Origin: a virus
IMG/VR virus record: IMGVR_UViG_3300038829_000108
Location: 1 to 43,053 of that record
Length of the DNA: 43,053 nucleotides
Strand: one strand, 5' to 3'
Shown: one piece after another, positions 4,613 to 40,861 of the stretch
Layout of the letters: each line of letters opens with the position of its first letter
How positions within the stretch are numbered: the first letter of the stretch is position 1
The notes under the pieces: generated by a model
The model's database searches: none
The model's input: the letters and a program-made list of their open reading frames with translations, nothing else
Told to the model about the DNA's origin: nothing
Program-made: the position numbers and the translations under genes

Positions 4613-5896
4613 TTACGCCTTCACCTTCAGGTGATAGAACGCCTCATTTGATACGGGCATACCGTCAGTTTCCAAGCGACCGATGAAGCCAGTCTGATCG
4701 GTTTCGGCATACAACTCGTCCAGGCGTTTGATGCTCAGGTTCAGCGAATCAACAATCCAGTAATACTGGAAATCACCGATGGTGGCGATCAACTCGTTGT
4801 CCTTATAAACATCGCTGGTATCCAAACCAGTCGGATACTGATCTGAAAGCTCATACGCCCAATCCAAAATGGTGCTCGGGTGACCACTGCTCAAGCCTGG
4901 CTGCCAAAGATATTGGTTGTTGCTGTCTTTCAGCAAACGCACCTTGCGCAGGAAGGAGCGATTGGTCAGGATGCGAGCCGTTCCCGCGTAAGCCGCGGGC
5001 AGGCTGTATGCCCAGTTGACAATGTCGTCTGGAGCCAAAACATTCGATGCCGCAGTGGTGTACTTCGGAATGCCGCTCCACTGCAAAATACCCATCGGGC
5101 CATTGGCGCTCTTGCCATTGATGAACGCATATTCCGAAGGCACGCCAAAACGCCTGCCCATGCGGTTGGTGATCCAGCTCTCGATGTCGATCAAGCGGCC
5201 AGCGCGCAGTTCTGTATTGCTGATCAGGATGCGCTTCGCCAGTGGCTTCGGGGTTAAGATGCGTCCGCCGAAAGGCTTGATCTCATCCTTCGAGCCTGTC
5301 TTGATCTCGGTTGTCCACTCGGCATCCGAGAGTTCATTCTCTTCGGTCGGTGTGATGGATGAACCGCCAGGGATCGCGGGTAATACACGGCTAATTCGGC
5401 GCATGGCAGAAACAGGTTCCTGCTTCTCGAGCAGCTCTGAACGTTGCGTATCGGTCACCAGGTAACCGCCTGCTGAAGCGGGGCTGGTGGCAAGGTCCTT
5501 GCGCTCCACACCTTCAAAACCATTCTTCCAATACATAATGGTCGCAATGGCTTGCTTGGCTTGCTTCTCATCGAAGAATCGCTCTTCGATTTCAGCGCTC
5601 TTGAAACCAGCCTGCCGCAATGCGCTCTTCGTCTCAGCGGAGATCGCGCCCTTGCCTTCGCCGCCGCCATTCATCGGCAGTTGCGAGTTCGGCTTGTTGA
5701 ACGTCTCATCCATCCCAGCCGCGCGCTCGAGGCGTTTCGCCCCTGCGGTCTTGGCTTCCACCTGGTCAAGCAGGGTATCTACTGCATCCGCCTTGTCCTT
5801 TGGCAGATCCTTGCCCTTGAACTCATCCAGAATGGTTTTCGCATGTACGTGCAATTGATTGGCTTCGTCATAAAGCCGTTTGATATTCGGGTCCAT
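4613..5896 (-). CDS. Major capsid protein, HK97 family
   Basis: 427 aa with an N-terminal coiled-coil delta-like region and an HK97-like core. It follows the prohead protease. Confidence 0.9.
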   Translation of the reverse strand: MDPNIKRLYDEANQLHVHAKTILDEFKGKDLPKDKADAVDTLLDQVEAKTAGAKRLERAAGMDETFNKPNSQLPMNGGGEGKGAISAETKSALRQAGFKSAEIEERFFDEKQAKQAIATIMYWKNGFEGVERKDLATSPASAGGYLVTDTQRSELLEKQEPVSAMRRISRVLPAIPGGSSITPTEENELSDAEWTTEIKTGSKDEIKPFGGRILTPKPLAKRILISNTELRAGRLIDIESWITNRMGRRFGVPSEYAFINGKSANGPMGILQWSGIPKYTTAASNVLAPDDIVNWAYSLPAAYAGTARILTNRSFLRKVRLLKDSNNQYLWQPGLSSGHPSTILDWAYELSDQYPTGLDTSDVYKDNELIATIGDFQYYWIVDSLNLSIKRLDELYAETDQTGFIGRLETDGMPVSNEAFYHLKVKA

Positions 5897-17771: not shown

Positions 17772-18626
17772 TCATTGACCACCGTCCCCTTGCGGCATCT
17801 CACTCCACTCACGCCCATCCAGCACACGCCCAGCCATTCCCTTTCCAACACAGCACATCATTGTGCCATCCCAATCAATGGGTTTATGCCGAAATGTAGT
17901 GCTATCGGTAATCCACGGCAAATGATCCATCGGAGCCCAATCTCCCCATTGCTTGAAAAAGAAAGGAATATCATTCGCCGTGCAAAAATCACGCGCAGAT
18001 CTCGCCCAATTCGGGTGCATGATTCGCGCCCGCGCTCCGCTCTCTCCGCCACATACAAGTTGATTCAAAAACTCCCATCCTTTCCAATCAACCTTACTCA
18101 AAGCAGGTTCGTAACTCACCCATGTTTTCCAGCCCATCTCACTGACCTCGCTAAAATCAGCCCAACGTTCTTCTGCGCGTTTGTCGTTCTCGATACTAAC
18201 GCCCAGATAAACATTTTCAAGCGGTTCAATTCGTGAAGTCAAGCCCTGAATAAAACCCATCATTCGCCGCGGTCTCTTTGTCAAAACCTGATAGGTATGC
18301 TTTCTCGTTTCGCGCATGATCTCAAACACCTTGAGCAAATATTCATCTGACACGTCATCGTGAAACAGATCGCCCATATACTCGACCAACACGCGCTGGG
18401 GCTTACGCCACTTCAAAGGTTCGCCCAAACGTTCTGGAATCAATGTAATCTTCCCCGTCCAATGACCGCGAGCATCTACCACATCCTGATATTCAGGTCG
18501 CCCCATCGCCCGCAGCCGCTTTGCCATCGCCGCAGCCCAGCAATTCACGCAACCTTCGCTCTTGATCGCGCATCCCGCCAGCGGATTCCAAGTCCGATCA
18601 CCATATTCAATATTTGTTTTACTCAT
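17772..18626 (-). CDS. Phage Gp37/Gp68-family protein (DUF5131)
   Basis: N-terminal signature TWNPLAGCAIKSEGCVNCWA. Confidence 0.75.
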   Translation of the reverse strand: MSKTNIEYGDRTWNPLAGCAIKSEGCVNCWAAAMAKRLRAMGRPEYQDVVDARGHWTGKITLIPERLGEPLKWRKPQRVLVEYMGDLFHDDVSDEYLLKVFEIMRETRKHTYQVLTKRPRRMMGFIQGLTSRIEPLENVYLGVSIENDKRAEERWADFSEVSEMGWKTWVSYEPALSKVDWKGWEFLNQLVCGGESGARARIMHPNWARSARDFCTANDIPFFFKQWGDWAPMDHLPWITDSTTFRHKPIDWDGTMMCCVGKGMAGRVLDGREWSEMPQGDGGQ

Positions 18627-19017: not shown

Positions 19018-19058
19018 AAATTAACTTTGAAAGTTATACGCTGGCATCATGTACCTCA

Positions 19059-19090
19059 TTCATCCTTCATAATTCACAATTCATCATTCG
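19059..19090. repeat. Heptad-spaced TTCAT repeats (5 units)
   Basis: TTCATCC TTCATAA TTCACAA TTCATCA TTCG with period 7. The core is the same as in the 21974-22317 iterons. Confidence 0.7.
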
Positions 19091-19142
19091 CCACGTCCCC
19101 TCCCCTACACATGCCTGATGTCCATTTCCGCGCCCACACCCA

Positions 19143-19164
19143 GCGCACGCACGCACGCACGTAC
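19143..19164. repeat. 22-nt alternating purine-pyrimidine tract, mostly (GCAC)n
   Basis: GCGCACGCACGCACGCACGTAC, a Z-DNA-prone composition. Confidence 0.7.
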
Positions 19165-19178
19165 AAAGCGGGGGATTA

Positions 19179-19207
19179 TTGGCGGTTAAATTCATTTTGG
19201 CGGTTAA
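19179..19207. repeat. Two direct copies of TTGGCGGTTAA spaced 18 bp start to start
   Basis: 19179-19189 and 19197-19207, 5 nt downstream of the RHH gene stop. Confidence 0.75.
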
Positions 19208-19211
19208 GAAT

Positions 19212-19487
19212 TCAACTAATCCATGTATCAATGGCATCTTCCAAAGCCTTCACCGCTTCATCGGAATTCTTCGCGCCAGCTTCAACCGCAGCCTGTACTC
19301 CGCTCCCCAACTCCCCATTCAACGCAGATACCAACAACGCCCAAGCCATCGGAGCAGCTTTCTTTTTTTTATTCATCTCAACTACCCAATCCACAGCTTT
19401 CTGCACACGCGGATCAGTAATCGGTTGCGCTACTCTCACATTCAACTCCATGCGCCGCGACGGAATAATATTTTTATGTCTCGCCAT
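19212..19487 (-). CDS. Ribbon-helix-helix-like protein, ParR-like candidate (91 aa)
   Basis: The N-terminal RRMELNVRV strand followed by the helix DPRVQKAVDWVVEM resembles an RHH fold. It lies directly downstream of the ParM-like gene. Confidence 0.4.
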   Translation of the reverse strand: MARHKNIIPSRRMELNVRVAQPITDPRVQKAVDWVVEMNKKKKAAPMAWALLVSALNGELGSGVQAAVEAGAKNSDEAVKALEDAIDTWIS

Positions 19488-19524
19488 CTGATCTCCAAAT
19501 CAAATCCGTTTCACAATCCGTCGA

Positions 19525-20523
19525 CTACTTCATTCGTAGTGCCGCCTTATACAACCCGCGGCTGATTGGCATAATCGGATCGTCGAAAAACACAGCACGC
19601 CCATTGAATTTCTCGGTCAAATGGTTTCGCAATAAGATCGCGCCGCCGCCAACTACAAAGACTTTTGCAAAACGCTCCCACTCCTCACCGCGCCATTTCT
19701 CATTCAAAAAGCGATCAACCTCAGTCCACCACGCATCGAGAAACGGATTTACGCTGAACTGCTCAGGCAACTCGTCCGATTGTAGTAACTCGCTCCATTC
19801 CCCAAAATAATAGCGGTCATGCGGATCAGAAACAGATTTCAACCAGCGCACCCCAATCGGCTTACCGCCGCAATAACGACGTGTATCAATATCCTTCCAC
19901 GTCACCTGTGTTTCGACAGTTGACGAACCAATTGAAATAGCGCCATTCTCGCGCTTCATTACCTGCGCCCTTGCATCGTCAATTGGGTTCCCATCCATTC
20001 CAAAGACATAATCCGTCTGCACGCCAAAAGCCTGCGGGGCAAGCCCAACCTTCACAATCGTCGCGGACATATTTGTCCCGTCCGCCAGCCACTCATGCAA
20101 CCCGCCAATCCAACCCTTAATCTGGCGATTCCATTTATCAACCTGCCCTTTATCTCCATCCAACAATTGATATGGCAAACCAACTACTACCTCAATCGGC
20201 TCTGAATAATCCACGCCAAATTTGCGCTGATATGCCGTCAATGCCCCCGCTAAAATTGCACGCATCTCAATGGTGGCATTCGTCAATTGATCCATCGAAA
20301 AGTTTTCCAACGGTTGAATTCCCGCGCGGTGTGCATTATGACCAACGAACAATTCATGTCCATCCATCTCAACCAGCATCGGTCGATTTTTCTTCGAGCG
20401 GCTTACCAACTCCGCGCTATTCCCGCCAGGCAGCGCCGCCAGACTTGGAAACAAAATGCTTCCAGCCACGCCTGTTATCTTTACTGACGAACGTCCCATA
20501 TCCACACCAAGTTTTATATTCAT
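19525..20523 (-). CDS. Actin-fold ParM/StbA-like ATPase
   Basis: Actin-fold motif series: GVDMGRSSVK (phosphate 1), VVVGLP, AISIGSSTVE (phosphate 2), VFVVGGGA (adenosine). Confidence 0.6.
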   Translation of the reverse strand: MNIKLGVDMGRSSVKITGVAGSILFPSLAALPGGNSAELVSRSKKNRPMLVEMDGHELFVGHNAHRAGIQPLENFSMDQLTNATIEMRAILAGALTAYQRKFGVDYSEPIEVVVGLPYQLLDGDKGQVDKWNRQIKGWIGGLHEWLADGTNMSATIVKVGLAPQAFGVQTDYVFGMDGNPIDDARAQVMKRENGAISIGSSTVETQVTWKDIDTRRYCGGKPIGVRWLKSVSDPHDRYYFGEWSELLQSDELPEQFSVNPFLDAWWTEVDRFLNEKWRGEEWERFAKVFVVGGGAILLRNHLTEKFNGRAVFFDDPIMPISRGLYKAALRMK

Positions 20524-20553
20524 GTCATTTCTCCTTTTATATGTTTTGAATTT

Positions 20554-21222
20554 TTACTTACTATCCAACGAACCTTCCATCACCGCTCTGCCTTCTTCGG
20601 TCAACTCAAACCCCTGCCTCTGATCCTTCTCGCTTCGCGGCTTGAGCAATCCCCTGGCTAACATAACTGACCTCAACAGCTTTATCTCTGCCACGGAAAA
20701 CGGTTTACCACCTCCAGACCACGCCCCCTCAGTAAAAGGAATCCCGTTCAACAAACCCTCCGCCAATTTCCGCAACTGGCTATCCGTACATGGCAAACTG
20801 ATCAAGTCCACCTGCAAACTGCCTCCTTCTTTGATGTGATTGACCTGCACCTTCACCAGACGCGGCTCTGTTCTGTGCGAAGTTGAAGACTCAACCACTC
20901 CATCCCCATTCAGATCGCGCTGCATAACCTTTTCCGCAGTCAATACCAGCCAGCGCCGTTGCAGGAATAGCCACGAGAAAAAAGGCATCACTCCGAAAAT
21001 AACCAATGCCACCTTCCATCCACTTGACCATTCAAACACCCATGACAGGATCAATACACCGAACGCAAGAAGTCCGCTTGTGATCATGGCTTGTAACAGC
21101 GGCACCACCACCCCTGCATTCTGGGTGTGCAAAAACTGACGGTCTGAATAGTGAAGCGTCTCCTGTGGATAAGCTGGGGCAGATTGCGCTTGTGTAACTT
21201 GTGTTTTCTCAAATGTGCTCAT
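20554..21222 (-). CDS. Membrane protein with a cytoplasmic winged-helix-like C-terminal domain (222 aa)
   Basis: Two or three TM segments, then the GIPFTEGAWSGGGKPFSVAEIKLLRSVMLARGLL region. Its start is coupled to the upstream stop. Confidence 0.6.
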   Translation of the reverse strand: MSTFEKTQVTQAQSAPAYPQETLHYSDRQFLHTQNAGVVVPLLQAMITSGLLAFGVLILSWVFEWSSGWKVALVIFGVMPFFSWLFLQRRWLVLTAEKVMQRDLNGDGVVESSTSHRTEPRLVKVQVNHIKEGGSLQVDLISLPCTDSQLRKLAEGLLNGIPFTEGAWSGGGKPFSVAEIKLLRSVMLARGLLKPRSEKDQRQGFELTEEGRAVMEGSLDSK

Positions 21223-21845
21223 TTCTCCTCCGCATCGATGATCAACGGTTGCACCATCGCCACACCCGTCGGATCATTGCTTTTACTTGCGGCGCTTGCC
21301 AAAACTCCAACGTGCCGAATCGCTCCTGCAGTCTGTATCATCAATCTGTCAGGTTCGTTGCGCGTGTTGAGCAAGAGCGTCGTATTCGTATTCGGGTCCG
21401 TCAGCGAAACGATCCCTTTACCCGCATATTCAAGCACCAACGGATATTGACCAGTTGACTTATCCAAATAAATAAGTTGCGCCTTCACCATCGCCGCGCG
21501 CGCCACCGCTTTCCCACTCCCATAAATGGCAATGCTTCCGCTTGCGCCAACAGACAGGATCACGATCACCAGCGAGATAGTAATGGCGATCCCGCTCCAA
21601 TATGTGACCATCTCCATCGCATGTTTTTTATTCTCAAGCGCCGCATCTTTCACTTCCTGCTCCCGCTCTGCATTCTGGATCGCAATCTCATCCAGCTTGA
21701 TCTGCTGCTCACGCGTGCGGGTCGCATCCATCGCTTGTTGCTCCGCTTCGATATGCATCACATCCGCCTTGGCAACATCCTTCGGGTTTGGCGCACAGCC
21801 AGCCAATGCCAGGGAAACCAATAATACAAATAGAACCTTTTTCAT
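21219..21845 (-). CDS. Lipoprotein with a coiled coil and an internal TM segment (208 aa)
   Basis: ATG at 21845 follows GGAGG. MKKVLFVLLVSLALAGC matches a lipobox. Confidence 0.65.
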   Translation of the reverse strand: MKKVLFVLLVSLALAGCAPNPKDVAKADVMHIEAEQQAMDATRTREQQIKLDEIAIQNAEREQEVKDAALENKKHAMEMVTYWSGIAITISLVIVILSVGASGSIAIYGSGKAVARAAMVKAQLIYLDKSTGQYPLVLEYAGKGIVSLTDPNTNTTLLLNTRNEPDRLMIQTAGAIRHVGVLASAASKSNDPTGVAMVQPLIIDAEEK

Positions 21846-21856
21846 TGTGCCTCCAT

Positions 21857-21952
21857 TCATTGAAAAAATATCAAATACAGAGCCAGTCCGCTAAAAAAAC
21901 ACGCACCAATCATCAACACCAACGTAATCAAATACAATTTTCTATCGTCCAT
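21857..21952 (-). CDS. Small hydrophobic protein (31 aa, below the ORF-track cutoff)
   Basis: AAGGAG lies 8 nt upstream of the ATG. The sequence is MDDRKLYLITLVLMIGACFFSGLALYLIFFQ. Confidence 0.5.
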   Translation of the reverse strand: MDDRKLYLITLVLMIGACFFSGLALYLIFFQ

Positions 21953-21973
21953 CTTATAAAATCTCCTTTCTCG

Positions 21974-22317
21974 ATGAACCAAATGAACCTAGTTAATGAA
22001 CCTGACCGTCATTCCGCTTCATTTTCACTTCATAAACTCACTGCCGTAATAGGCGATGTTTTCAAAAAACGATTAAATATCTTTACTTCATAAAGGTTCA
22101 TAAGGTTCATTAAATATGCGCTCGGATTGGTTTTCACCCCACCCAAAACGCCTCCACGCCAGTCAAAAACCAATTTAATGAAGCAAATGAACCTTTATGA
22201 ACCTAAAAACAGGGTTCCGTACCGTTCATTTGAAAAAAAATCGCGCATATTTTTTCCTAATGCCGTATGCCCCCCTTTTTGCTTCATAAGCTTCATAAGG
22301 TTCATTAATCCATTCAT
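21974..22317. repeat. Iteron array: about 17 copies of ATGAA(C/G)C / G(G/C)TTCAT in alternating oriented triplets
   Basis: Plus-strand ATGAACC at 21974, 21983, 21996, 22187 and 22197; ATGAAGC at 22178. Inverted copies (G/C)(G/C)TTCAT at 22016, 22028, 22086, 22095, 22104, 22223, 22281, 22290, 22299 and 22311. Spacing within clusters is 9-13 bp. Confidence 0.85.
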
Positions 22318-25300
22318 TACTTTTCGTCTCCATCTTGATAATCTTCCATCCATTGCGCGTTGGCAGATGGAACATAATCATCCAATCTCGCCTGCGCTGG
22401 CTCAGACGCAACTGGTTCAGCCTCGTCCTCGCTCTTATAGTTCGGGTTGTAATCATTTTCTAAATCCAACCCCAGCCGCATTCGCGCAATATCCAAACGC
22501 TTCCTTTCCAAAACTACCGCAAACCCGCCCCCTGCGCTTCCAGCACGCTCCACGGGCAGCCGAAATGCCTCGTGACAAACTTTGCCCGCTGTCTGGCTCT
22601 GCGTTTTCTTGCGTCGCTTTTTTTCTTCCTCGGTTTCATCAATACTCTCAAGATCGAAAAACTCATTCAAAATCTTCGCCAGATCTTTATACAAAATGTA
22701 GCGCACTACCCCGTGCTTGCCCAATTTTCCGAACTTCACTAAATTCTTATATCCGCTCACTTTCTGTGCGTAGATCGGGCTTGCCTTCGGCTTGATTCCA
22801 TCCTCCAAATCCTTTGCAATTTCCGCCGCCAGCGCCGCGCGCAAAACCATCGCCTCAAATGAACCCGATAACTCAATCAATTGATCTTCAAAATTTGCCC
22901 GTCCGATCACAAACAGATCGTTGAATAAATCCATATCTTTTTGTTTGATCGCCATCACCTTTACCGCGCGAAATAATTGATTCGTGCGCGCATCCACCAG
23001 CACATCATTTAATTTATGTGTTGCGCGTTCTTCCTTTGTTAACTCAATCCGTGGCATCCATGTTTCCAATCGCCACCGCAGGCATATATTCCGAATCCCC
23101 TCAGCCTCTTCCTCCAACTCAGGCGGATAATATCCAGGCTCATATCCATCTCTATCGAGCGTAATCATGTCAGTCTTTGTCAAATAAAAAGTCATGAAGC
23201 GGCTTTCAAGCCCTTTATCTTTCGTGGGCTTATAACCAGTCGCCATTGTCGGACCATAAATCGGCGTGTTCGCAGGGATAAAAGTTTTTCCGTTTGGCGT
23301 CATCACTTCCATCATCTTGAATGAATGTGCCATGCGACGCATCGGACGCGCCTTCATATAGCCCGCCAGTGTCCCATCGTCCCGCTGAAGCGCGGAGTCA
23401 TACTCATCAATCATGTCAGTCGCGTGATAAATTTTTGCCAGCCCCTCATGTGATTTCGCCGTAGTAGTGGCAGCCGTCACTGCGAACCGATAAGAAGTCA
23501 GTCCCACCAAATACATCAAATCAGATTTACCGCTTCCAGCAGGCCCCAAACAGCGCAGCATATTGATCGTATCGAAACAATCGTACACATGCGTATTGAC
23601 TGACCACACCGCGCTGAATTTGAAAACGCTTTTATCTTCGGCATAAAAGAATTTCTTGTAAAACTCGGCATTCATTTGGATGATCTCAGCCGTTGTGTGC
23701 TTCTCTCCCACCCGTGACGGGAACTTGATCGCGGAAGAGTGGAACTCGATTTCCTCTTGTATCGTCTGGTCGTATGCAGGCGGAATCAAAATCTTATTTT
23801 CCAGCGTCAGAGTCTTCCCCCATCCAATCTCTCGCTCATCATTCTTGATGCTCTTGATATGCGCCCATGCCAGCCGCAATTTCTGCGCCTCGCGGTCGTA
23901 ATACATCTCTACCAAATGCCCGCTGTCTTTATTATCGCGGTTCTGAAACCATCCCCCGTATGTTTCAATTTCAGGAAGCCCATCTTCGCTATCGCCAGCC
24001 TCAGCCGCAACCTTCACCTCAGCCCGCAGCCATTTGTTGTATGCAGTAGCAGCCTCCGCCTTTGAAACATTTGGATAGATCGCAAGCGATAAATCCCGTG
24101 ACAAATTCACCCGTTGCGTTTCTGGGATTGAAAGAATCATCGGGCGCACGATCTTATCTATCATCTGATTCCGCGCATGACCGCCCAACGACCCCGCATG
24201 TCGCGCCGCCAGCACCACAATCCGCTCCGCCCTCATCGGAATTTCATTCACCAGCGCATACCCATCAGTTTTATCTGCCTTTGTATCACGGATAAACTGC
24301 GCGATGTCATTCACGTCCTTGAGGGTTTTCTGCTTTCCGTCTGGACGCATCCATTCTTTTTTCGGTGTCCGACCCACCCACAACATCGCCCCCAGCGCGT
24401 TGGACAATTCGAATTTATTATCGCGTCCCGTTACTACCTTTTCCCCTGCCGCGTCCGCATCGGTCACGTAAATAAATTCCTCATAATCATTCAGCCAATC
24501 ATCCACCTCTCCGTTCTCGACCAAATGTTCCCACGAGGAACCACATAACCCGACAGCAGGCAAACCGAATTGTTCGTATGTTTTCGAATCGCCCTGCCCT
24601 TCCACAACATAAAGCAACGCGCCTTTTTCCTGACCCTCCAAATGATGATGACGATACAACGAATTCCGAAATGCGCGGCGCTTGCCGATCAAACCCTCAT
24701 TCGGGTTGCGACTTTTCCGCTCCTCATCGAACCCAGGCAGAATTCGCCCGCTCAAATACTCGATTCGCCCATCGAACTTATGCGCGTACACCAGCGCAGG
24801 TTTATCCATCAACCCACTGACGTAATTCTTAGAAAAACTATGCGGATCAAGACCCCGCGACGTTGCCCACTCTGCGACATTCCCCTGAAACCCCAATATC
24901 ACTACCGCCTCTGGTGAGAGCAGATCAACTCCGTGCATTTTCAACTCTTCGCGCATTTCCTTCTTTTCAGCAACAGTAGCCCGCCCGCTAAAGCCAAGCG
25001 TCCCGCCGTTTTGAATCGTCCCCAACTCCCACCCACGATCCAGCGCGTAATTCAACGCACCCTCATCGCCAGCGCGAACAACTTTCCCGTCCTTGTCAGT
25101 TGTCCCCAACAGCCAGCGGCGCATGACATCCATTGCCACGCGATACGCGCCCTGTTTTGCCTGCGCTGCCTTTCGTTCAGGCATCGATGCAGTAGCAGGA
25201 AGCAGATCAATTCCAGCCCGTTGCGCTAAATTTCGCAAAGCCTCATCAAAATCCCACCCTGGATTTTTCTTCATCACCCAATCAAACTGACTCCCGCCGT

Positions 25301-25508
25301 CATTGCATGAACCGAAGCATTTCCAACGCCATCCTCCCTTATGGTTCGGAGGATACACAACCAATGACCGATTATTCTTATCGTTGTGAAACGGGCAAAA
25401 TCCAACCCACCCCCGCCCGCTCTTCTTCAACTTAACCGAAGCGATTTCATTCACCAGTTCGGATAAATCCACTTGCGCTTTGATGTCGTCAACAATTGTC
25501 ATTTTCAC
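22317..25508 (-). CDS. DnaG-type primase (CHC2 Zn finger + Toprim) fused to a P-loop helicase
   Basis: CPFHNDKNNRSLVVY...CFGSC zinc finger, VVEGQGD Toprim, GPAGSGKSD Walker A. The GTG at 25508 or the ATG at 25502 could be the start. Confidence 0.85.
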   Translation of the reverse strand: MKMTIVDDIKAQVDLSELVNEIASVKLKKSGRGWVGFCPFHNDKNNRSLVVYPPNHKGGWRWKCFGSCNDGGSQFDWVMKKNPGWDFDEALRNLAQRAGIDLLPATASMPERKAAQAKQGAYRVAMDVMRRWLLGTTDKDGKVVRAGDEGALNYALDRGWELGTIQNGGTLGFSGRATVAEKKEMREELKMHGVDLLSPEAVVILGFQGNVAEWATSRGLDPHSFSKNYVSGLMDKPALVYAHKFDGRIEYLSGRILPGFDEERKSRNPNEGLIGKRRAFRNSLYRHHHLEGQEKGALLYVVEGQGDSKTYEQFGLPAVGLCGSSWEHLVENGEVDDWLNDYEEFIYVTDADAAGEKVVTGRDNKFELSNALGAMLWVGRTPKKEWMRPDGKQKTLKDVNDIAQFIRDTKADKTDGYALVNEIPMRAERIVVLAARHAGSLGGHARNQMIDKIVRPMILSIPETQRVNLSRDLSLAIYPNVSKAEAATAYNKWLRAEVKVAAEAGDSEDGLPEIETYGGWFQNRDNKDSGHLVEMYYDREAQKLRLAWAHIKSIKNDEREIGWGKTLTLENKILIPPAYDQTIQEEIEFHSSAIKFPSRVGEKHTTAEIIQMNAEFYKKFFYAEDKSVFKFSAVWSVNTHVYDCFDTINMLRCLGPAGSGKSDLMYLVGLTSYRFAVTAATTTAKSHEGLAKIYHATDMIDEYDSALQRDDGTLAGYMKARPMRRMAHSFKMMEVMTPNGKTFIPANTPIYGPTMATGYKPTKDKGLESRFMTFYLTKTDMITLDRDGYEPGYYPPELEEEAEGIRNICLRWRLETWMPRIELTKEERATHKLNDVLVDARTNQLFRAVKVMAIKQKDMDLFNDLFVIGRANFEDQLIELSGSFEAMVLRAALAAEIAKDLEDGIKPKASPIYAQKVSGYKNLVKFGKLGKHGVVRYILYKDLAKILNEFFDLESIDETEEEKKRRKKTQSQTAGKVCHEAFRLPVERAGSAGGGFAVVLERKRLDIARMRLGLDLENDYNPNYKSEDEAEPVASEPAQARLDDYVPSANAQWMEDYQDGDEK

Positions 25509-28048: not shown

Positions 28049-28356
28049 TGCCCATCTCCCTTGTCATCTAGGAGTTTCAACACGAATTTCAATTCCTGCT
28101 TGCCCGTTTCCAATTTCAATTGAATCAGCGCAAGCGGTGCGTTTTCAAACACAGTCGCAACTGGATAATGCCCGCGTTCGTCCTCTTCATACGCCGCCAG
28201 CCGCTCCGCAATCAGTTTTTTATTGATCGCCAACATACGCTCGCGCCGAAGAATTTCCTCAGCTGCGATTGTTCGCGCTTTCGGGGTGTTCGCTTCTCCG
28301 TCGCGCACTATTTCCAGCAATTTGCTAATCATAAGATTTTGGAGTCTGCCGCTCAT
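28045..28356 (-). CDS. Hypothetical protein (103 aa)
   Basis: ATG at 28356 overlaps the integrase TGA. GGAGG RBS. Confidence 0.6.
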   Translation of the reverse strand: MSGRLQNLMISKLLEIVRDGEANTPKARTIAAEEILRRERMLAINKKLIAERLAAYEEDERGHYPVATVFENAPLALIQLKLETGKQELKFVLKLLDDKGDGQ

Positions 28357-29306
28357 CACATCACCTCCAACGCCGCGCGGACTTGGCTATCCCGCACGCC
28401 GAAATACAAATCTGTCGTCTTCACATCCGCATGGCGCATTTGCCTGCGGACTGCGTTCCTGCGCGCCATCTCTGGCACGCCGATTTTCGACAAAGCATCG
28501 TTATATGCGTAAGCGAACGTATGCCGTAGATCATGCGGCTTCAAATCCACAACGTTTCCAGCCGCGCCAATCATCTTGATTCTGCGCCACACTGTACCGC
28601 GCGTAATACGTTGCCCATTCCAATCAGTGACAACCGCCTGCGCTTCAATCCCCCGCATCGTGAGCCATTCGGAAATTTCATTCATCGCCTCGGCGCTTAT
28701 ATCAATCGTCTCTTTTTTTGCGCCCTTGCCATACACGCTGATTTTGTTCGAGACAAAATCCAGGTCTGAAACATCCAACCCTGCGACCTCGCTCTCGCGC
28801 AACCCCGCGCTATTGAACAAGATCCAAATTGCTCTGTCGCGCAGTCCAAGCCATAAATGATTTTCTGTCTGATATTTCAGATGTGATCCCGCCCCAACGA
28901 CCGCATTCAACTTCTCCATCTCCGTCCCCGACCTATCACGCGGACTCGGCTCCACAGGCTGACGTCTGACCGATATAGTCGGGTCATATTCAAGCATCCC
29001 TGCTTCCACTGCCCAATGCACCAGCACGCGCATACTGGCAAGCCTGCGGTTGCGGCTGGCTGGCTTCACTGCTTTATCTGCATCCTGTCCCGCAAAATAC
29101 TTTTTCACATCCGTCGCATTGAGTTGATCGGGCGAAAATGAACTCGCATTCTCACGGTGAAAGAACTCAGAGAAATGACGCAAATCCTGCATATATGCGC
29201 TGATCGTTATTTCAACGCGGTCATGCTCGCGCAGCCAAAATTTGAAATCATCCATCCAATGAGATGTCGAAACTTCCAACTGGGTAATATCAATTTGAGG
29301 AAACAT
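28356..29306 (-). CDS. Tyrosine recombinase (XerC/D / phage integrase family)
   Basis: GLRESE (Arg), HDLRHT (His-x-x-Arg), RHADVKTTDLYFG (His and catalytic Tyr). Confidence 0.85.
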   Translation of the reverse strand: MFPQIDITQLEVSTSHWMDDFKFWLREHDRVEITISAYMQDLRHFSEFFHRENASSFSPDQLNATDVKKYFAGQDADKAVKPASRNRRLASMRVLVHWAVEAGMLEYDPTISVRRQPVEPSPRDRSGTEMEKLNAVVGAGSHLKYQTENHLWLGLRDRAIWILFNSAGLRESEVAGLDVSDLDFVSNKISVYGKGAKKETIDISAEAMNEISEWLTMRGIEAQAVVTDWNGQRITRGTVWRRIKMIGAAGNVVDLKPHDLRHTFAYAYNDALSKIGVPEMARRNAVRRQMRHADVKTTDLYFGVRDSQVRAALEVM

Positions 29307-32185: not shown

Positions 32186-33886
32186 ATGCCCCACCTCCCT
32201 CCGCCTTCCACCCTCCCACCAGGCTCCATCGTAGACGCCTACGTCCGCGACTCTGGCGGTCCGCGCCAGGATGCCTCCACCGACCAGCAAATCGCCGAAA
32301 TCGAAAAATACTGCCAAACATACGGCCTCACCCTCCGTCACAAATTTGCAGACGTTGCCAAATCGGGAGGCTCCACATCCACACGCGACGAATTCAACAA
32401 CCTCATAGACTCCACCCGCCGCGTCGAAGATCGCCCTGCAGGTGTGCTCCTCTGGAACTACGCCCGCTTCGCCCGCGACCTCGACGATGCCATCTACTAC
32501 AAAGCCCTCCTCCGCAATCGCAGCATCATCGTCCACTCCCTCACCGACCCAATCCCAGAAGGCCAGTACGGGCGCATCATCGAATTTTTTATAGACATCT
32601 CCAACGAGGAAAAACGCCGCCAAACCTCCACCGATGCCAAACGCGGACTGCGTGATCTCGTCCTCAAACATGGCTGCATCCCTGGCACACCCCCGCGCGG
32701 CTTCAAACGCGAACCCGTTGAGATTGGACTGCGGCGCGACGGCTCACCCCACATCGCCCACCGCTGGGTTCCCGATCCCGATGTTGTCCCCCGCATCCAA
32801 CGTGCTTTCACCATGCGTGCCAGCGGATCAACCCTCGCCCAAGTCCACGCCGAAACAAAAATCTTTACCTCTCTCAATTCCTACAAAACCTTCTTCGCCA
32901 ACCGCATCTTTATCGGTATCCTCGAATTCGGCGACCTGGTCATAGAAAATTATTGTGAACCGCTCGTAGATATGCAGACCTGGAACACCGTCCAAAAAAT
33001 AATCCGCGACTACGCCCAGGCCCGCACATCCGAACGCCACCCGCGCCGCGTCGATTCAGCCTACCTTTTATCTGGTCTTGTTTTCTGTGATTGTTGCGGC
33101 TCCCCAATGTTCGGCAACACCGCCACTCGTCACCACATCACAGGTCGTGACGAAGCCTACCGTTGTTCAGCCGCCCGCCGAAAACGCGAATGCGCCGCCA
33201 GTCGCATCCCCCGCCGTAAACTTGAGGATGCCGTTTTCGCCACCCTGCATGATCACATCCTTCTGCCAGACAGCCTCTCCGCAATGCTCGAAGTCGAACG
33301 TCACGCCACCGATCACCGCGAAACAAAACGTACAGAACGCCTGGCAATTCTTAACGTCGAAAAGAAAAAGCTCTCAACCCAAATCGTCAATATCACCCGC
33401 GCCATAGCCGAACGCGGGCACTCATCCACCCTCCTTGACAAGCTGACCGAACTCGAAGCCCAGCGCGCAATGGTCCTGACCGAATTTACAGAACTCAACA
33501 ACCTGCGCTTTGTAGCTTCCCCGCCGCTCACCGAAGAAGAGATCATCATTGTCTCGAACATGCTCTCTGACATTCTTCACGAAGCCCCCGCCGAGCAAGT
33601 CAAACAAATACTTCAATCCTTCATCCACAAAATACTCGCCAAAAAAACAAACGGACAGATCACAGGCTCCATCACCTACTTCACCCCGCCGCTAGCCGAT
33701 CTGCTGCGTAGCAGTCCGCCCGATTCGCCCCCTTTTGAATCCCCCCCCACGGGTAATACAATGTTGCCTATAAGTTCCCGCTCCGTGGGGGCACACCTCT
33801 ATAGGCAAATATTCAGCCATCCTATTATTTCACCAAAAAAAGCCGCTCAGAAGAGCGGCTTTTTTGATCCCTACTCTCGCTCATAG
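32186..33886 (+). CDS. Large serine recombinase (integrase type)
   Basis: Resolvase catalytic region AYVRDSGGPRQDASTDQQ, recombinase domain, zinc ribbon CDCCGSPMFG...YRCSAARRKRECA, coiled coil. A ~70-aa low-complexity C-terminal tail follows. Confidence 0.85.
   Translation: MPHLPPPSTLPPGSIVDAYVRDSGGPRQDASTDQQIAEIEKYCQTYGLTLRHKFADVAKSGGSTSTRDEFNNLIDSTRRVEDRPAGVLLWNYARFARDLDDAIYYKALLRNRSIIVHSLTDPIPEGQYGRIIEFFIDISNEEKRRQTSTDAKRGLRDLVLKHGCIPGTPPRGFKREPVEIGLRRDGSPHIAHRWVPDPDVVPRIQRAFTMRASGSTLAQVHAETKIFTSLNSYKTFFANRIFIGILEFGDLVIENYCEPLVDMQTWNTVQKIIRDYAQARTSERHPRRVDSAYLLSGLVFCDCCGSPMFGNTATRHHITGRDEAYRCSAARRKRECAASRIPRRKLEDAVFATLHDHILLPDSLSAMLEVERHATDHRETKRTERLAILNVEKKKLSTQIVNITRAIAERGHSSTLLDKLTELEAQRAMVLTEFTELNNLRFVASPPLTEEEIIIVSNMLSDILHEAPAEQVKQILQSFIHKILAKKTNGQITGSITYFTPPLADLLRSSPPDSPPFESPPTGNTMLPISSRSVGAHLYRQIFSHPIISPKKAAQKSGFFDPYSRS
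33744..33808. other. Interleaved 9-bp inverted repeats, candidate attP core
   Basis: CCCCCACGG (33744-52) pairs with CCGTGGGGG (33783-91). TTGCCTATA (33764-72) pairs with TATAGGCAA (33800-08). Confidence 0.4.
33835..33865. terminator. Bidirectional rho-independent terminator
   Basis: AAAAAAA-GCCGCTC-AGAA-GAGCGGC-TTTTTT. It lies 5 nt after the minus-strand gene stop and inside the last 52 nt of the serine recombinase ORF. Confidence 0.85.
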
Positions 33887-38906: not shown

Positions 38907-40861
38907 TATCGTTTCCTGCGCAGTTTATATTTGATCCTCAGGTCGAAGTTCGTCGTGCCTGTATCGATGAACCTCAACTGGTTGGTGACCCCAGGCCGAA
39001 ACGCCAGCCATTCCAGCCGCGCCGCATCCAGCCGCTTCGCGCGGTGGCAATTCGTCCCGTCGCTATTTAACACAGTTCGCAACTTTGAATTTGCGGTCAG
39101 CGTTTGATTCAATTCCATCGTCCAGCGCATGAACAGGCTCTCGGTCTTTGTTTCGCCCTGATAGGTGAAGGTGTTTTGAATCTCGCAATTCAAGTCGTAA
39201 TTGCTTTCCTCGGCCATCATCGCCGCAGTGATCGGGTTCGCCAGCGCTACGGTCACCGCGTCGATCTCAAAGTACGCCTGCGCATTGAGCACCGCGCGCA
39301 AGGAGCCTTCCATCAGAAACCGAATATGTTTGTAGGCCGACCCGATCGTTTGCGATCCTGTATTGGTGATCGTAACAAACACGCCTGCGCTGGCGGGCTT
39401 CGCCTCGTTGAACTGTTCTGTATAGTCGATCCCGTTGATCGATTTCTCCAGCCCCACAAAAGCGGGCCACTGACCCGTTGTGCGCTTCTTCTCGCCTATC
39501 GGAGTCACAGATGTAATACCGCCAGGGTGCGAGAATTTACATTCCAGCGCCGCGTTCACCGCAATCGGCAGTCCTCCCCGCGTGAACGTCTTCATCAACA
39601 TCCCCAGCGCCGTGATCGGGTCCGCTGTGTTGTCGCCCGCCTCGCCTGAATACGTGCCCGATCTCGACCGTGCCGTGCGGCTGATGATGGCTTGTTTCCA
39701 CGCGCCAGGCCGCAGCCCAGCTTTATCACCAAAGCTGGTATATACCCTGCTCCCATTGGTCGAAGTGGCAATTTCAAAGGCCGCCGCATGGGTTGAATCC
39801 GTCTCAGGCGCGGCAATGGTTGAATTGCCGTAATATACGTAAATGTCATGCTCGATGTATTTGATGATCGCGCCATCCGCATGGCTGGCCATGCTCGATT
39901 TTCGAGCGGCTCTGCTGGAAAGGATCGGCTCGAAATAGATCGTCAGCAGATTGACATCCCGCCTCAGGTAAATGAACCGTTCGTTATCGATCTCCACGAT
40001 CCCGCGCCTGTTCGGTAGTCGGTTCAGCGCCTGCCTGTTGGTGATCGTATCTTTCGCCTTGATCGACGATACGATCCCCGAGCTGGCAATCGTTCCGCTC
40101 AACGTCATCTCGATCTTCCCTCTGAAGTTGAACGGCCCCGCAAACACCTTCGTGGACGCGGTATCCATATTCACCAGAAACCGATCCACTTCCTGCCCCC
40201 CATCGAACACCCGCAAATCCTGCCCGCCCGCCTGCATCTTGGCGGTCGTCAGTATTGCGGTATCCCATCCGCCGTTGGTCACATCCACCAGCTCGTTTAG
40301 TACTGCCGCATTGTTCGGGTTATATAACCGTATCCATTTGCGGTATCCGAATCCGCCTGTCTTTGCGTTTTTCGGGGTGGCCTCAAAGGTGGGCAATGCC
40401 TCCACAGTTCCGTCTACAAAAATATCCTTCGTCTGGTTGCTCGCCGTAATGTTCCACAGCGTTTCGGTCTCGGTTGTTTTTTCCCACACCCCGTCCGCCG
40501 CCTGCAGGGTGATCTTGCTGGTCATCGCTCTCATCGCATGGTTGATCACCCGCCCCATCACCGACCATTCGCTCTTTGCGTTATCCATCCCAATCAACTG
40601 CTGTGACGAGTTTCTCAGGGAGTCAAATGCCATGCCCAAAGCGTCCAGTTTGGTTTGTTTATCCCTGCCTTTGGGCGTCACGGTCACTACCAGATAATCT
40701 GCCTTGCGTGTCATTCCCGCCTCGGCAGGCGCGGATTCGCCCAGTTCTACAACCTCCAATTCAACAGGCGGCTGCACGTTGGGGTTGTCCGCGTCGTCGA
40801 GATACGCGAAATAATCCGTCATAAGATTTAATGCGCCAATGGATTTGATTCGCCAGATCAT
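38906..40861 (-). CDS. Distal tail protein (Dit-like, extended)
   Basis: 651 aa directly after the tape measure; start overlaps the tape measure stop. Confidence 0.5.
   Translation of the reverse strand: MIWRIKSIGALNLMTDYFAYLDDADNPNVQPPVELEVVELGESAPAEAGMTRKADYLVVTVTPKGRDKQTKLDALGMAFDSLRNSSQQLIGMDNAKSEWSVMGRVINHAMRAMTSKITLQAADGVWEKTTETETLWNITASNQTKDIFVDGTVEALPTFEATPKNAKTGGFGYRKWIRLYNPNNAAVLNELVDVTNGGWDTAILTTAKMQAGGQDLRVFDGGQEVDRFLVNMDTASTKVFAGPFNFRGKIEMTLSGTIASSGIVSSIKAKDTITNRQALNRLPNRRGIVEIDNERFIYLRRDVNLLTIYFEPILSSRAARKSSMASHADGAIIKYIEHDIYVYYGNSTIAAPETDSTHAAAFEIATSTNGSRVYTSFGDKAGLRPGAWKQAIISRTARSRSGTYSGEAGDNTADPITALGMLMKTFTRGGLPIAVNAALECKFSHPGGITSVTPIGEKKRTTGQWPAFVGLEKSINGIDYTEQFNEAKPASAGVFVTITNTGSQTIGSAYKHIRFLMEGSLRAVLNAQAYFEIDAVTVALANPITAAMMAEESNYDLNCEIQNTFTYQGETKTESLFMRWTMELNQTLTANSKLRTVLNSDGTNCHRAKRLDAARLEWLAFRPGVTNQLRFIDTGTTNFDLRIKYKLRRKR

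Follow-up and report, generated by a model that had tools for sequence, protein, structure and literature searches.

Why does a phage carry a gene for a ParM-like actin-fold protein, and which of the elements around that gene belong to it? The question is raised by a 43,053-nucleotide (nt) viral DNA, IMG/VR record IMGVR_UViG_3300038829_000108 (this whole stretch is called the window below). At positions 19212-21952, it holds a run of five minus-strand genes, the first three for membrane proteins, the fourth for an actin-like protein (ALP), and the last for a small putative adaptor. A sequence-only reading of this DNA had treated the five genes as one ParM-type segregation module with TTCAT/ATGAA repeats on both sides, and had suggested an extrachromosomal prophage or, alternatively, actin-driven placement of the phage DNA at the membrane. 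We followed up that reading by computational analysis of the window and of related loci (designated here by L numbers). The interpretation we favor is that ALP, the adaptor, and a pair of direct TTAACCGCCA repeats would act, by analogy with AlpAC and ParMRC, as a DNA-positioning cassette that is distinct from an adjacent primase-helicase origin and is carried by an integrating temperate phage; we hold this to be probable.

The Actin-Like Protein and Its Putative Adaptor

The proposed cassette consists of three elements:

19525-20523, minus strand: ALP, 332 amino acids (aa), a ParM-like actin-fold protein recognized by Pfam ALP_N, PHROG 691, and AlphaFold/Foldseek
19212-19487, minus strand: putative adaptor, 91 aa; a small homologue follows the ALP gene in related loci
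19180-19189 and 19198-19207, minus strand: two direct TTAACCGCCA repeats with starts 18 nt apart; a candidate for a centromere-like site or an adaptor operator

ALP matched the Pfam model ALP_N (PF17989) with 56.5 bits (cut-off 26.3, E 4.9e-15) and PHROG 691, annotated as "partition protein" (1.3e-20). An AlphaFold model built from a 49-sequence alignment had a predicted local distance difference test score (pLDDT) of 91.9 and a predicted template modeling score of 0.89. When the model was compared with the PDB by Foldseek, the top 28 matches were all Ta0583, ParM, Alp12, CorM, Alp7A, or AlfA entries, ahead of MamK and MreB. The best matches (Ta0583, pSK41 ParM, pCBH ParM, Dh-cParM1, Alp12, CorM, R1 ParM, Alp7A, and AlfA) were found with E values of 1e-17 to 1e-10 and TM-scores (either normalization) of up to 0.77. 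Over 49 homologues, D8 is nearly invariant and G10, K15, G199, E204, and G292-G294 are invariant, and by inspection we assigned the conserved residues to the phosphate 1, phosphate 2, and adenosine motifs. On the evidence of the Pfam match and the modeled structure, the 332-aa protein is an actin-fold protein of the ParM/Alp group, as had been proposed from the letters of the sequence, and it is predicted to form filaments. ALP is only 11-19% identical to solved ParMs, and its scores against the NCBIfam ParM and PRTRC_D models fall far under the cut-offs; by these measures it is a divergent lineage, known only from metagenomes. A phmmer search of ALP against PDB sequences gave no match.

A homologue of the 91-aa gene lies directly after the ALP gene in nearly all related loci examined (the gap in the window is 37 nt), which bears out the expectation that a ParM/Alp-type gene in a phage should have a small partner gene beside it. 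In an alignment of the family (A5), the N terminus is basic, the core is helical and contains an invariant ...LNGELG motif, and the C-terminal helix is acidic/hydrophobic. The ribbon-helix-helix (RHH) fold that had been attributed to this protein was not confirmed: the AlphaFold model had a pLDDT of 52.8, Foldseek with this low-confidence model found no match, and the protein matched nothing in Pfam, NCBIfam, or the PDB sequences. Comparison with R1 ParR by hhalign, for which an approximate ParR sequence was used, gave a probability of 0.05%. The predicted layout, an extended N terminus followed by four helices, is compatible with an RHH protein without demonstrating one. The two genes of the cassette can be separated by other DNA. 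The ALP and adaptor genes of L015 flank a frameshifted pair of genes (L015 7819-8401) for DNA methyltransferase-like products of 137 and 75 aa, and the cassette therefore tolerates insertions at this point.

A Candidate Segregation Site Travels with the Actin-Like Cassette

The two TTAACCGCCA repeats (the TTAACCG pair) are the only exact copies in the window, and both are identical in L005. Similarity between the DNA of the window and that of L005 in this region is confined to a single block (window 19129-20552, 79% over 1434 nt), which extends from just after the stop codon of the 222-aa membrane protein gene to 83 nt beyond the adaptor gene, with the pair inside those 83 nt. The recombination block shared by the two phages thus consists exactly of the ALP ribosome-binding site, the ALP gene, the adaptor gene, and the TTAACCG pair.

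The association is general. Among 21 relatives that had been found by protein similarity and that had room around the cassette, 19 carried a TAACCGYN pair, a single one in each case, which always lay next to the cassette and on the ALP strand. Its position is usually right after the adaptor gene; in L010 and L109 it is upstream of the ALP gene, which in L109, a locus found via the DNA pattern itself, is the classical parC position. The sequence of the site also varies with the adaptor: the AACCGCTA half-site variant accompanied adaptors of the "HLHIDPY" type in 10/12 cases, versus 2/26 for the "RLDG/ELNVRV" type (Fisher p = 8e-6; 6e-5 without L109). A scan of the viral collection with the pattern TTAACCGC...TTAACCGC returned mostly chance matches, 4/120 being beside an ALP gene, and we left these four loci out of the independent count. 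That the half-site variant follows the adaptor subtype supports, but does not prove, binding of the adaptor to the pair, and we regard the TTAACCGCCA pair as the candidate cis site of the actin-like cassette and a candidate segregation site. Because natural variants of the pair follow the adaptor subtypes, the specificity of the putative adaptor for DNA is directly testable.

The Upstream Repeats Most Likely Form an Origin Belonging to the Primase-Helicase

If the TTAACCG pair is the site of the cassette, what is the role of the far more conspicuous TTCAT/ATGAA repeats? Upstream of the five genes, two features adjoin:

22317-25508, minus strand: 1063-aa primase-helicase with a DnaG-type zinc ribbon, a Toprim domain, and a P-loop NTPase segment
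21974-22317, no strand assigned: iteron region of 16 TTCAT/ATGAA-core units, consensus about AGGTTCAT; recognized by enrichment and by its occurrence at the same place in relatives

The 1063-aa protein matched Pfam Zn_ribbon_DnaG (2.1e-17) and Toprim (0.0035), the NCBIfam dnaG domain (5e-24), and the PHROG DNA primase families, and its translation contains a Walker A motif (GPAGSGKS) and a Walker B-like motif (MIDEYD). The array begins at the stop codon of its gene. Sixteen TTCAT/ATGAA units fall within positions 21965-22314, versus 1.2 expected per 350 nt and six in the next-richest stretch of the window; 8/16 matches to GGTTCAT in the window are in this array, and 0/100 shuffles reached 16. 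The units form five sets of two to four with 9-10-nt spacing and alternating orientation, and the sets are separated by A/T-rich spacers. The same architecture is present directly 3' of the primase-like gene in 17/17 related loci that have one, and in the relatives the iteron region often includes a TATATATA tract and a ACAAAACAATTTTGTTTTGT-like palindrome. Of the two flanking clusters noted in the sequence-only reading, the upstream one is therefore strongly nonrandom (16 units versus 1.2), whereas the downstream one (19059-19090) holds three TTCAT units and belongs to a different element, described below.

When the loci were grouped by primase, the iteron unit was distributed as follows:

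Window-type primase (36-65% identity to the window primase), unit ATGAAC: window, L013, L141, L138
Window-type primase (36-65%), unit ATGAAG: L012, L137, L144
Window-type primase (36-65%), unit ATGAGG: L011, L067
L009-type primase (24-27%), unit TGAACA: L005, L009, L010, L015
Split primase (identity not compared), unit GTGAAC or GTGAAG: L001, L006, L007, L019

Two loci separate the primase from the actin-like cassette. L005 has an ALP that is 87% identical and an adaptor that is 90% identical to those of the window, yet its iterons are TGAACA units and its primase is just 24% identical. Conversely, the ALP of L013 is 32% identical, yet this locus has the ATGAAC units of the window and a primase that is 65% identical. 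The sequence of the unit thus tracks the type of primase and not ALP or the adaptor, and the array is therefore most likely an iteron origin, that is, the phage replication origin belonging to the primase-helicase, rather than a set of sites serving the segregation module, as had been supposed. The promoter of the operon that follows is probably in this region as well.

The TGAACA/GTGAACA units of L005, L009, L010, and L015 are similar to the P4 alpha iteron, TGTTCACC, and the specificity of the iteron sequence for the type of initiator is likewise a property of origins of the pri-rep-ori/P4 alpha type. In the pri-rep-ori modules of phage-inducible chromosomal islands (PICIs), including the Staphylococcus aureus pathogenicity islands, a primase(-helicase) gene is followed, as in the window, by short iterons in both orientations around A/T-rich DNA, and the PICI origins have several iteron sets separated by A/T-rich spacers (PMC6092414). 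The comparison has limits: pri-rep-ori has two iteron sets, versus five in the window, and initiator binding and origin activity are predictions for the window. If the assignment is correct, the origin iterons and the segregation site are cleanly separated within the same 3-kb stretch.

In many relatives, a zinc-ribbon-like protein of 80-96 aa (CxxC...CxxC; motif ...RQF...ERYCL.C...CR.CG.E) is encoded between the iterons and the membrane protein genes (L013 5023-5268, L015 4998-5273, L006 5890-6132, L009 6573-6854, and L010 6674-6964). It is absent from the window.

The Membrane Protein Genes Are Exchanged Independently of the Actin-Like Cassette

Three genes lie between the iteron region and the ALP gene:

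21857-21952, minus strand: 31-aa peptide with a single transmembrane (TM) segment (MDDRKLYLITLVLMIGACFFSGLALYLIFFQ); an open reading frame (ORF) with a hydrophobic segment, conserved at the same position in L013-L016
21219-21845 (ORF 21219-21860), minus strand: lipoprotein of ~208 aa with a lipobox and a TM segment; homologues lie upstream of genes of the 222-aa family
20554-21222, minus strand: 222-aa protein with two TM segments; family without a Pfam model

As described from the sequence, the five minus-strand ORFs lie close together, with a 4-nt overlap of the lipoprotein and 222-aa genes and gaps of 30 nt before the ALP gene and 37 nt before the adaptor gene. A GGAG-type ribosome-binding site precedes the start of every one of the five genes. 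Scanning of 18.9-22.5 kb for sigma-70 promoters and terminators found sites no more common than in shuffled sequences, and a search of the whole window against Rfam gave no match.

The descriptions given earlier to the three membrane proteins held for the most part. The peptide has one hydrophobic segment, and its gene, though uncalled, recurs at this place in L013-L016 with 71-74% identity and is a real gene by virtue of that conservation. The lipoprotein more likely starts at 21845, with MKKVL...LALAGC (MKKVLFVLLVSLALAGC); after the lipobox LALAGC come a charged, helical outer segment, a single TM segment at about residues 76-111, and a conserved C-terminal domain that is predicted to be cytoplasmic. 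Its match to LPAM_1 (0.021) is under the cut-off, and homologues at 85%, 61%, and 31% identity are encoded directly upstream of a 222-aa-family gene. The 222-aa protein was said to be polytopic with a winged-helix-like domain. A hydropathy scan identified two TM segments, for which "polytopic" is an overstatement of a two-TM hairpin, followed by a conserved C-terminal domain of ~100 aa. The hints of a winged helix are below threshold: an EarA-like match appeared in 4/50 members (best E 0.029), together with single matches to other families. The C-terminal domain had no Pfam match at threshold and no match in a PDB profile search, and hhalign detected no match of the family to MarR (an approximate query sequence) or to a 98-aa protein of L010. 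A search at E <= 1e-3 collected 1319 representative clusters, which makes the family a large one. The sequences in alignments A1 and A8 varied too much for pattern scans.

Do the five genes then work as one machine? In such a machine, the lipoprotein and the two-TM protein would be a receptor whose cytoplasmic C-terminal domain binds DNA or the ALP filament, and ALP would deliver genomes to a membrane site of replication or packaging. Membrane protein genes do recur beside ALP in relatives. The whole trio is beside an ALP gene in L013 (peptide 74%, lipoprotein 85%, and two-TM protein 71% identical) and in L015 (71%, 61%, and 65%), and the lipoprotein/two-TM pair persists in L141 (31% and 40%) and, more distantly, in L153; even at identities as low as 31-40%, the genes for lipoprotein, two-TM protein, ALP, and adaptor follow one another in this order. 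Where 222-aa-family loci had room, ALP was immediately downstream in 9/12. L005 lacks the trio, yet it encodes a protein of 341 aa that has a lipobox, a long helical ectodomain, and a single TM segment and whose C-terminal domain is homologous to that of the 222-aa family (hhalign 89%, E 2.3e-6, 98 columns). Precedents from other systems also fit: AlpC drives CGP3 DNA to the membrane (PMC4446434), CorR is the membrane tether of a ParM-like filament (bioRxiv 10.1101/2025.06.27.661541), and the helix-turn-helix domain of RodZ binds MreB (PDB 2wus).

The pattern of inheritance, however, does not support a single co-inherited unit. The ALPs of the trio-bearing loci are 32-34% identical to that of the window; in L013, membrane proteins that are 71-85% identical accompany an ALP that is 32% identical, and L005, with an ALP that is 87% identical, has no trio. 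The lipoprotein/two-TM pair occurs without an ALP gene immediately downstream in L147/L149 (the same phage) and in L150. When loci were sampled by their primase, ALP was present in 8/13, and the five phages without ALP all keep membrane proteins after the primase. Many other ALP loci have a two-TM family ("PRVWKWM") that is not homologous to the 222-aa family (hhalign 1-2%), and the winged-helix assignment draws on below-threshold hints. The membrane trio and the ALP cassette are thus exchanged independently, each being found without the other. Independent exchange argues against a specific, co-evolving protein-protein interface, and we consider the single machine rather unlikely. The membrane slot belongs to the primase-origin neighborhood as much as to ALP.

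The membrane proteins might instead have nothing to do with DNA positioning and form a superinfection-exclusion or host-envelope-modifying module in a permissive slot of the early operon. The slot resembles a hotspot in that its membrane proteins are nonhomologous from one relative to another, exclusion is a common function of phage lipoproteins, and there are weak PHROG matches to Cor and other lipoprotein families, although these cover the signal-peptide region only. Exclusion genes, on the other hand, are usually in the lysogeny module and expressed by the prophage, whereas these genes are in a replication operon with lytic direction; the positive-inside rule places the conserved domains of both proteins on the predicted cytoplasmic side; and PADLOC produced no significant match for the membrane proteins. 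On this evidence we regard such a module as rather unlikely. The most attractive function for the membrane cassette is that of a tether for replicating phage DNA, for which a link to ALP is unsupported. A more elaborate version, which we judge unlikely, is that the cassette, with its lipid-anchored helical ectodomain and the cytoplasmic C-terminal domain of the 222-aa family, is the membrane receptor hitherto missing from phage actin-like systems. Genomes bound by the adaptor would be brought to this tether by ALP filaments, the phage would thereby build a membrane-attached site of replication and segregation in Chloroflexota, and in relatives an FtsK-like translocase would take the place of ALP at the same platform. 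The recurrent juxtaposition with integral membrane proteins is nonetheless a candidate for the hand-over of phage DNA from filament to membrane, which work on CGP3 left open.

Taken together, the locus is best read, with fair assurance, as an early/replication operon in which a primase-helicase and its iteron origin are followed by a membrane cassette and then by an actin-like cassette. Should the membrane neighbors prove unrelated to the actin-like cassette, the locus would still illustrate clearly how a phage replication module can be a mosaic of cassettes.

Other proteins occupy or adjoin the membrane slot in several relatives. L159, which has no ALP, keeps the "PRVWKWM" two-TM family. In L158 (9389-13018), L154, and L161, also without ALP, the slot holds a Q/A/T-rich single-TM protein of 320-365 aa, and L158 also encodes a P-loop ATPase resembling FtsK/SpoIIIE (~430 aa; Walker A, GLPGKGKS). 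L003 (14258-15568) has both a Pfam-confirmed FtsK_SpoIIIE ATPase and an ALP, and a 440-aa protein of L010 (7302-9642) may be similar to the FtsK-like ATPase.

The Carrier Is an Integrating Phage Lineage

The window, a contig of WGS project CXWL01, is a complete, circularly assembling tailed-phage genome. Positions 1-127 are exactly repeated at 42927-43053, a 127-nt terminal overlap at k-mer length that indicates a circularly closed assembly, and the tail genes wrap around the ends (tail tube, 989-1576; tape measure, 40858-42975). The structural genes are those for tail tube protein, capsid, prohead protease, portal, large terminase, and tape-measure protein, and the phage also encodes two DNA methylases. 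Two recombinases are of interest for its lifestyle: a 566-aa large serine recombinase beside a divergent switch region (32186-33886, plus strand) and a XerC/D-like tyrosine recombinase inside the leftward early operon, in the lytic direction (28356-29306, minus strand). The latter could have a role in the resolution of replication multimers; two tyrosine recombinases are encoded in each of the relatives L001, L013, and L171.

We sought integrated relatives by scanning one genome per species. L137 is a syntenic prophage within a 329,566-nt contig of an Anaerolineales metagenome-assembled genome (MAG), with the serine recombinase at the prophage edge. Its identity to the window is 43% for the serine recombinase (N-terminal 116 aa), 50% for the tyrosine recombinase, 39% for the primase, 56% for ALP, 56% for the adaptor, and 57% for the terminase. 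The scan matched a further Anaerolineales MAG contig. L171 lies in a contig of 73,247 nt that comes from the sample of L005 and holds a member of the adaptor's 90% cluster. A first scan of genome contigs for exact peptides had found no match, and neither did a megablast comparison of the 17-26 kb region of the window with INPHARED phages and PLSDB plasmids. As syntenic relatives are embedded in contigs of 329 and 73 kb, we conclude that the lineage integrates. The window phage is probably temperate and siphovirus-like, with a host in the Anaerolineales (Chloroflexota) and a replication operon composed of three exchangeable cassettes in a fixed order.

These results bear on the proposal that the prophage persists as a low-copy plasmid by means of a ParMRC-type partition locus, with the flanking TTCAT/ATGAA repeats as the centromeres of that locus. 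A ParM-like ALP with a small downstream gene, a circular contig, and an early-operon tyrosine recombinase that could resolve dimers would all suit such a plasmid, and plasmid prophages with ParM-like genes have been described in Bacillus and Clostridioides. However, the iteron unit follows the primase and not ALP or the adaptor, a large serine recombinase lies next to the lysogeny region, and syntenic relatives are inside the 329-kb and 73-kb contigs. Moreover, the order of the genes places the cassette in the leftward early operon that would be read from the switch near 30.2 kb, and its expression in a lysogen is not obvious. The circular contig itself is the one pointer to a plasmid prophage, which is not supported otherwise, and we find the extrachromosomal lifestyle suggested by the sequence-only reading quite improbable.

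Comparison with Known Systems and Proposed Mechanism

To our knowledge, CGP3 AlpAC is essentially the only phage-encoded actin-like system that has been studied experimentally, and the window family extends such systems to temperate phages of the Anaerolineales. AlpAC of the Corynebacterium glutamicum prophage CGP3 likewise pairs an actin-like protein with a co-transcribed, small DNA-binding adaptor (PMC4446434, PMC5539076). The repeats near alpAC are binding sites of AlpA, and the filaments of AlpC drive phage DNA toward the membrane and increase its copy number (PMC4446434). Both cassettes are early genes of an integrating phage, the early timing in the window being deduced from position only, and in both a repeated site, for the window a candidate one, adjoins the cassette. 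AlpAC positions replicating phage DNA rather than providing long-term plasmid partition, and we propose the same function here by analogy. The systems differ in the position of the site, which is upstream of alpA in CGP3 and 3' of the adaptor gene in most relatives of the window; in the phylum of the host (Actinomycetota versus Chloroflexota); and in the setting of the cassette, which in the window directly follows a primase-helicase origin and a membrane protein cassette.

With ParMRC (R1, pSK41, pCBH), Alp7AR, and AlfAB, the window shares the ParM-like fold (Foldseek E 1e-13 to 1e-17, TM 0.65-0.77), the order of ATPase and small adaptor, and the presence of short direct DNA repeats beside the cassette. 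Type II ParMRC systems have 4-10 repeats upstream of parM, whereas there are two here, mostly downstream of the adaptor gene. The upstream array of the window differs from parC, a tandem, adaptor-specific array that overlaps the parM promoter, in that it co-varies with the primase. ParMRC is carried by low-copy plasmids, whereas the carrier here is an integrating phage whose 17-26 kb region had no PLSDB match by megablast, and the RHH fold of ParMRC adaptors was not demonstrable for the 91-aa protein. Precedents for membrane tethering of filaments or of replicating phage DNA through a small DNA- or filament-binding protein are CorMR, TubZRC-TubY, phi29 p16.7 with MreB, and MreB-RodZ. In these, the tethers are amphipathic helices or single proteins with interactions that have been shown; the membrane proteins of the window, in contrast, are integral, include a lipoprotein, belong to uncharacterized families, and are linked to ALP through gene neighborhood.

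By analogy with ParMRC and AlpAC, the basic N-terminal part of the adaptor would contact the TTAACCGCCA pair on circular phage DNA, and the C-terminal helix would capture ATP-bound ALP filaments. Growth of the filaments might then move or separate replicating phage genomes in the long cells of the host after infection or induction. As with CGP3 AlpAC, the genomes would be positioned for replication and packaging, and the cassette would not serve to maintain a plasmid over the long term.

Several points weigh against this account. Linked inheritance of neighboring DNA could produce the correlation between site variant and adaptor type without recognition, the pair could be a promoter or operator element used by another protein, and two direct repeats are fewer than the classical number in parC. 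The fold of the adaptor and its binding to DNA are predictions, and the origin assignment draws on architecture and co-variation alone. The circular contig is compatible with an episomal phase of this very phage, and the early-operon tyrosine recombinase would suit multimer resolution of a plasmid-like form.

A Conserved Non-Coding Element and Other Neighboring Features

The smaller repeat cluster downstream of the adaptor gene is part of a separate feature:

19055-19179, minus strand: conserved non-coding element, recognized by alignment across 11 loci; includes the 19059-19090 cluster

Its sequence can be written (CTCCCCCAC)...GTGCGCTSGG...AATGGAYATC...GTGGGGGAGGGGA, followed by two to four GATGAA units. 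The TTAACCG pair, the element, and the GATGAA units form a conserved composite of ~190 nt, and the three TTCAT units at 19059-19084 are its tail. We considered the 19059-19090 cluster as a second copy of the upstream array and rejected this, as GATGAA units are also present in relatives with TGAACA origin iterons.

The element was also located at L001 11395-11490, L007 5690-5790, L009 9312-9402, and L008 2972-3062. As RNA, its middle part folds into a long hairpin in L001, L007, and L009 (z -4.3 to -6.9) and in L008 (z -2.6), with different stem sequences; the window has no such fold (z +0.4). RNAalifold found no consensus structure in two alignments of the element, and the Rfam search of the whole window found no family for it. 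The element could be a small RNA, an anti-Shine-Dalgarno leader, or a single-stranded DNA hairpin.

A short palindromic element, CTTCCCCCAAAT...ATTTGGGGGAAG or TCTCCCCCAAATA...TATTTAGGGGAGA, is present in the intergenic DNA of several relatives (L006 ~5431-5480 and 5860-5890, L007 ~2870-2920, L009 9181-9260, and L015 7704-7815). In L009 it separates the adaptor gene from the TTAACCG pair, and in L015 it has been inserted between the ALP and adaptor genes; it looks like a mobile hairpin of the miniature inverted-repeat transposable element or repetitive extragenic palindrome kind.

Two genes downstream of the five-gene run, the window encodes a DUF5131 protein (17772-18626, minus strand) that is also found near the ALP cassette in several relatives. 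It matches the PADLOC candidate defense families PDC-M41B and PDC-M30B with E values of ~1e-67.

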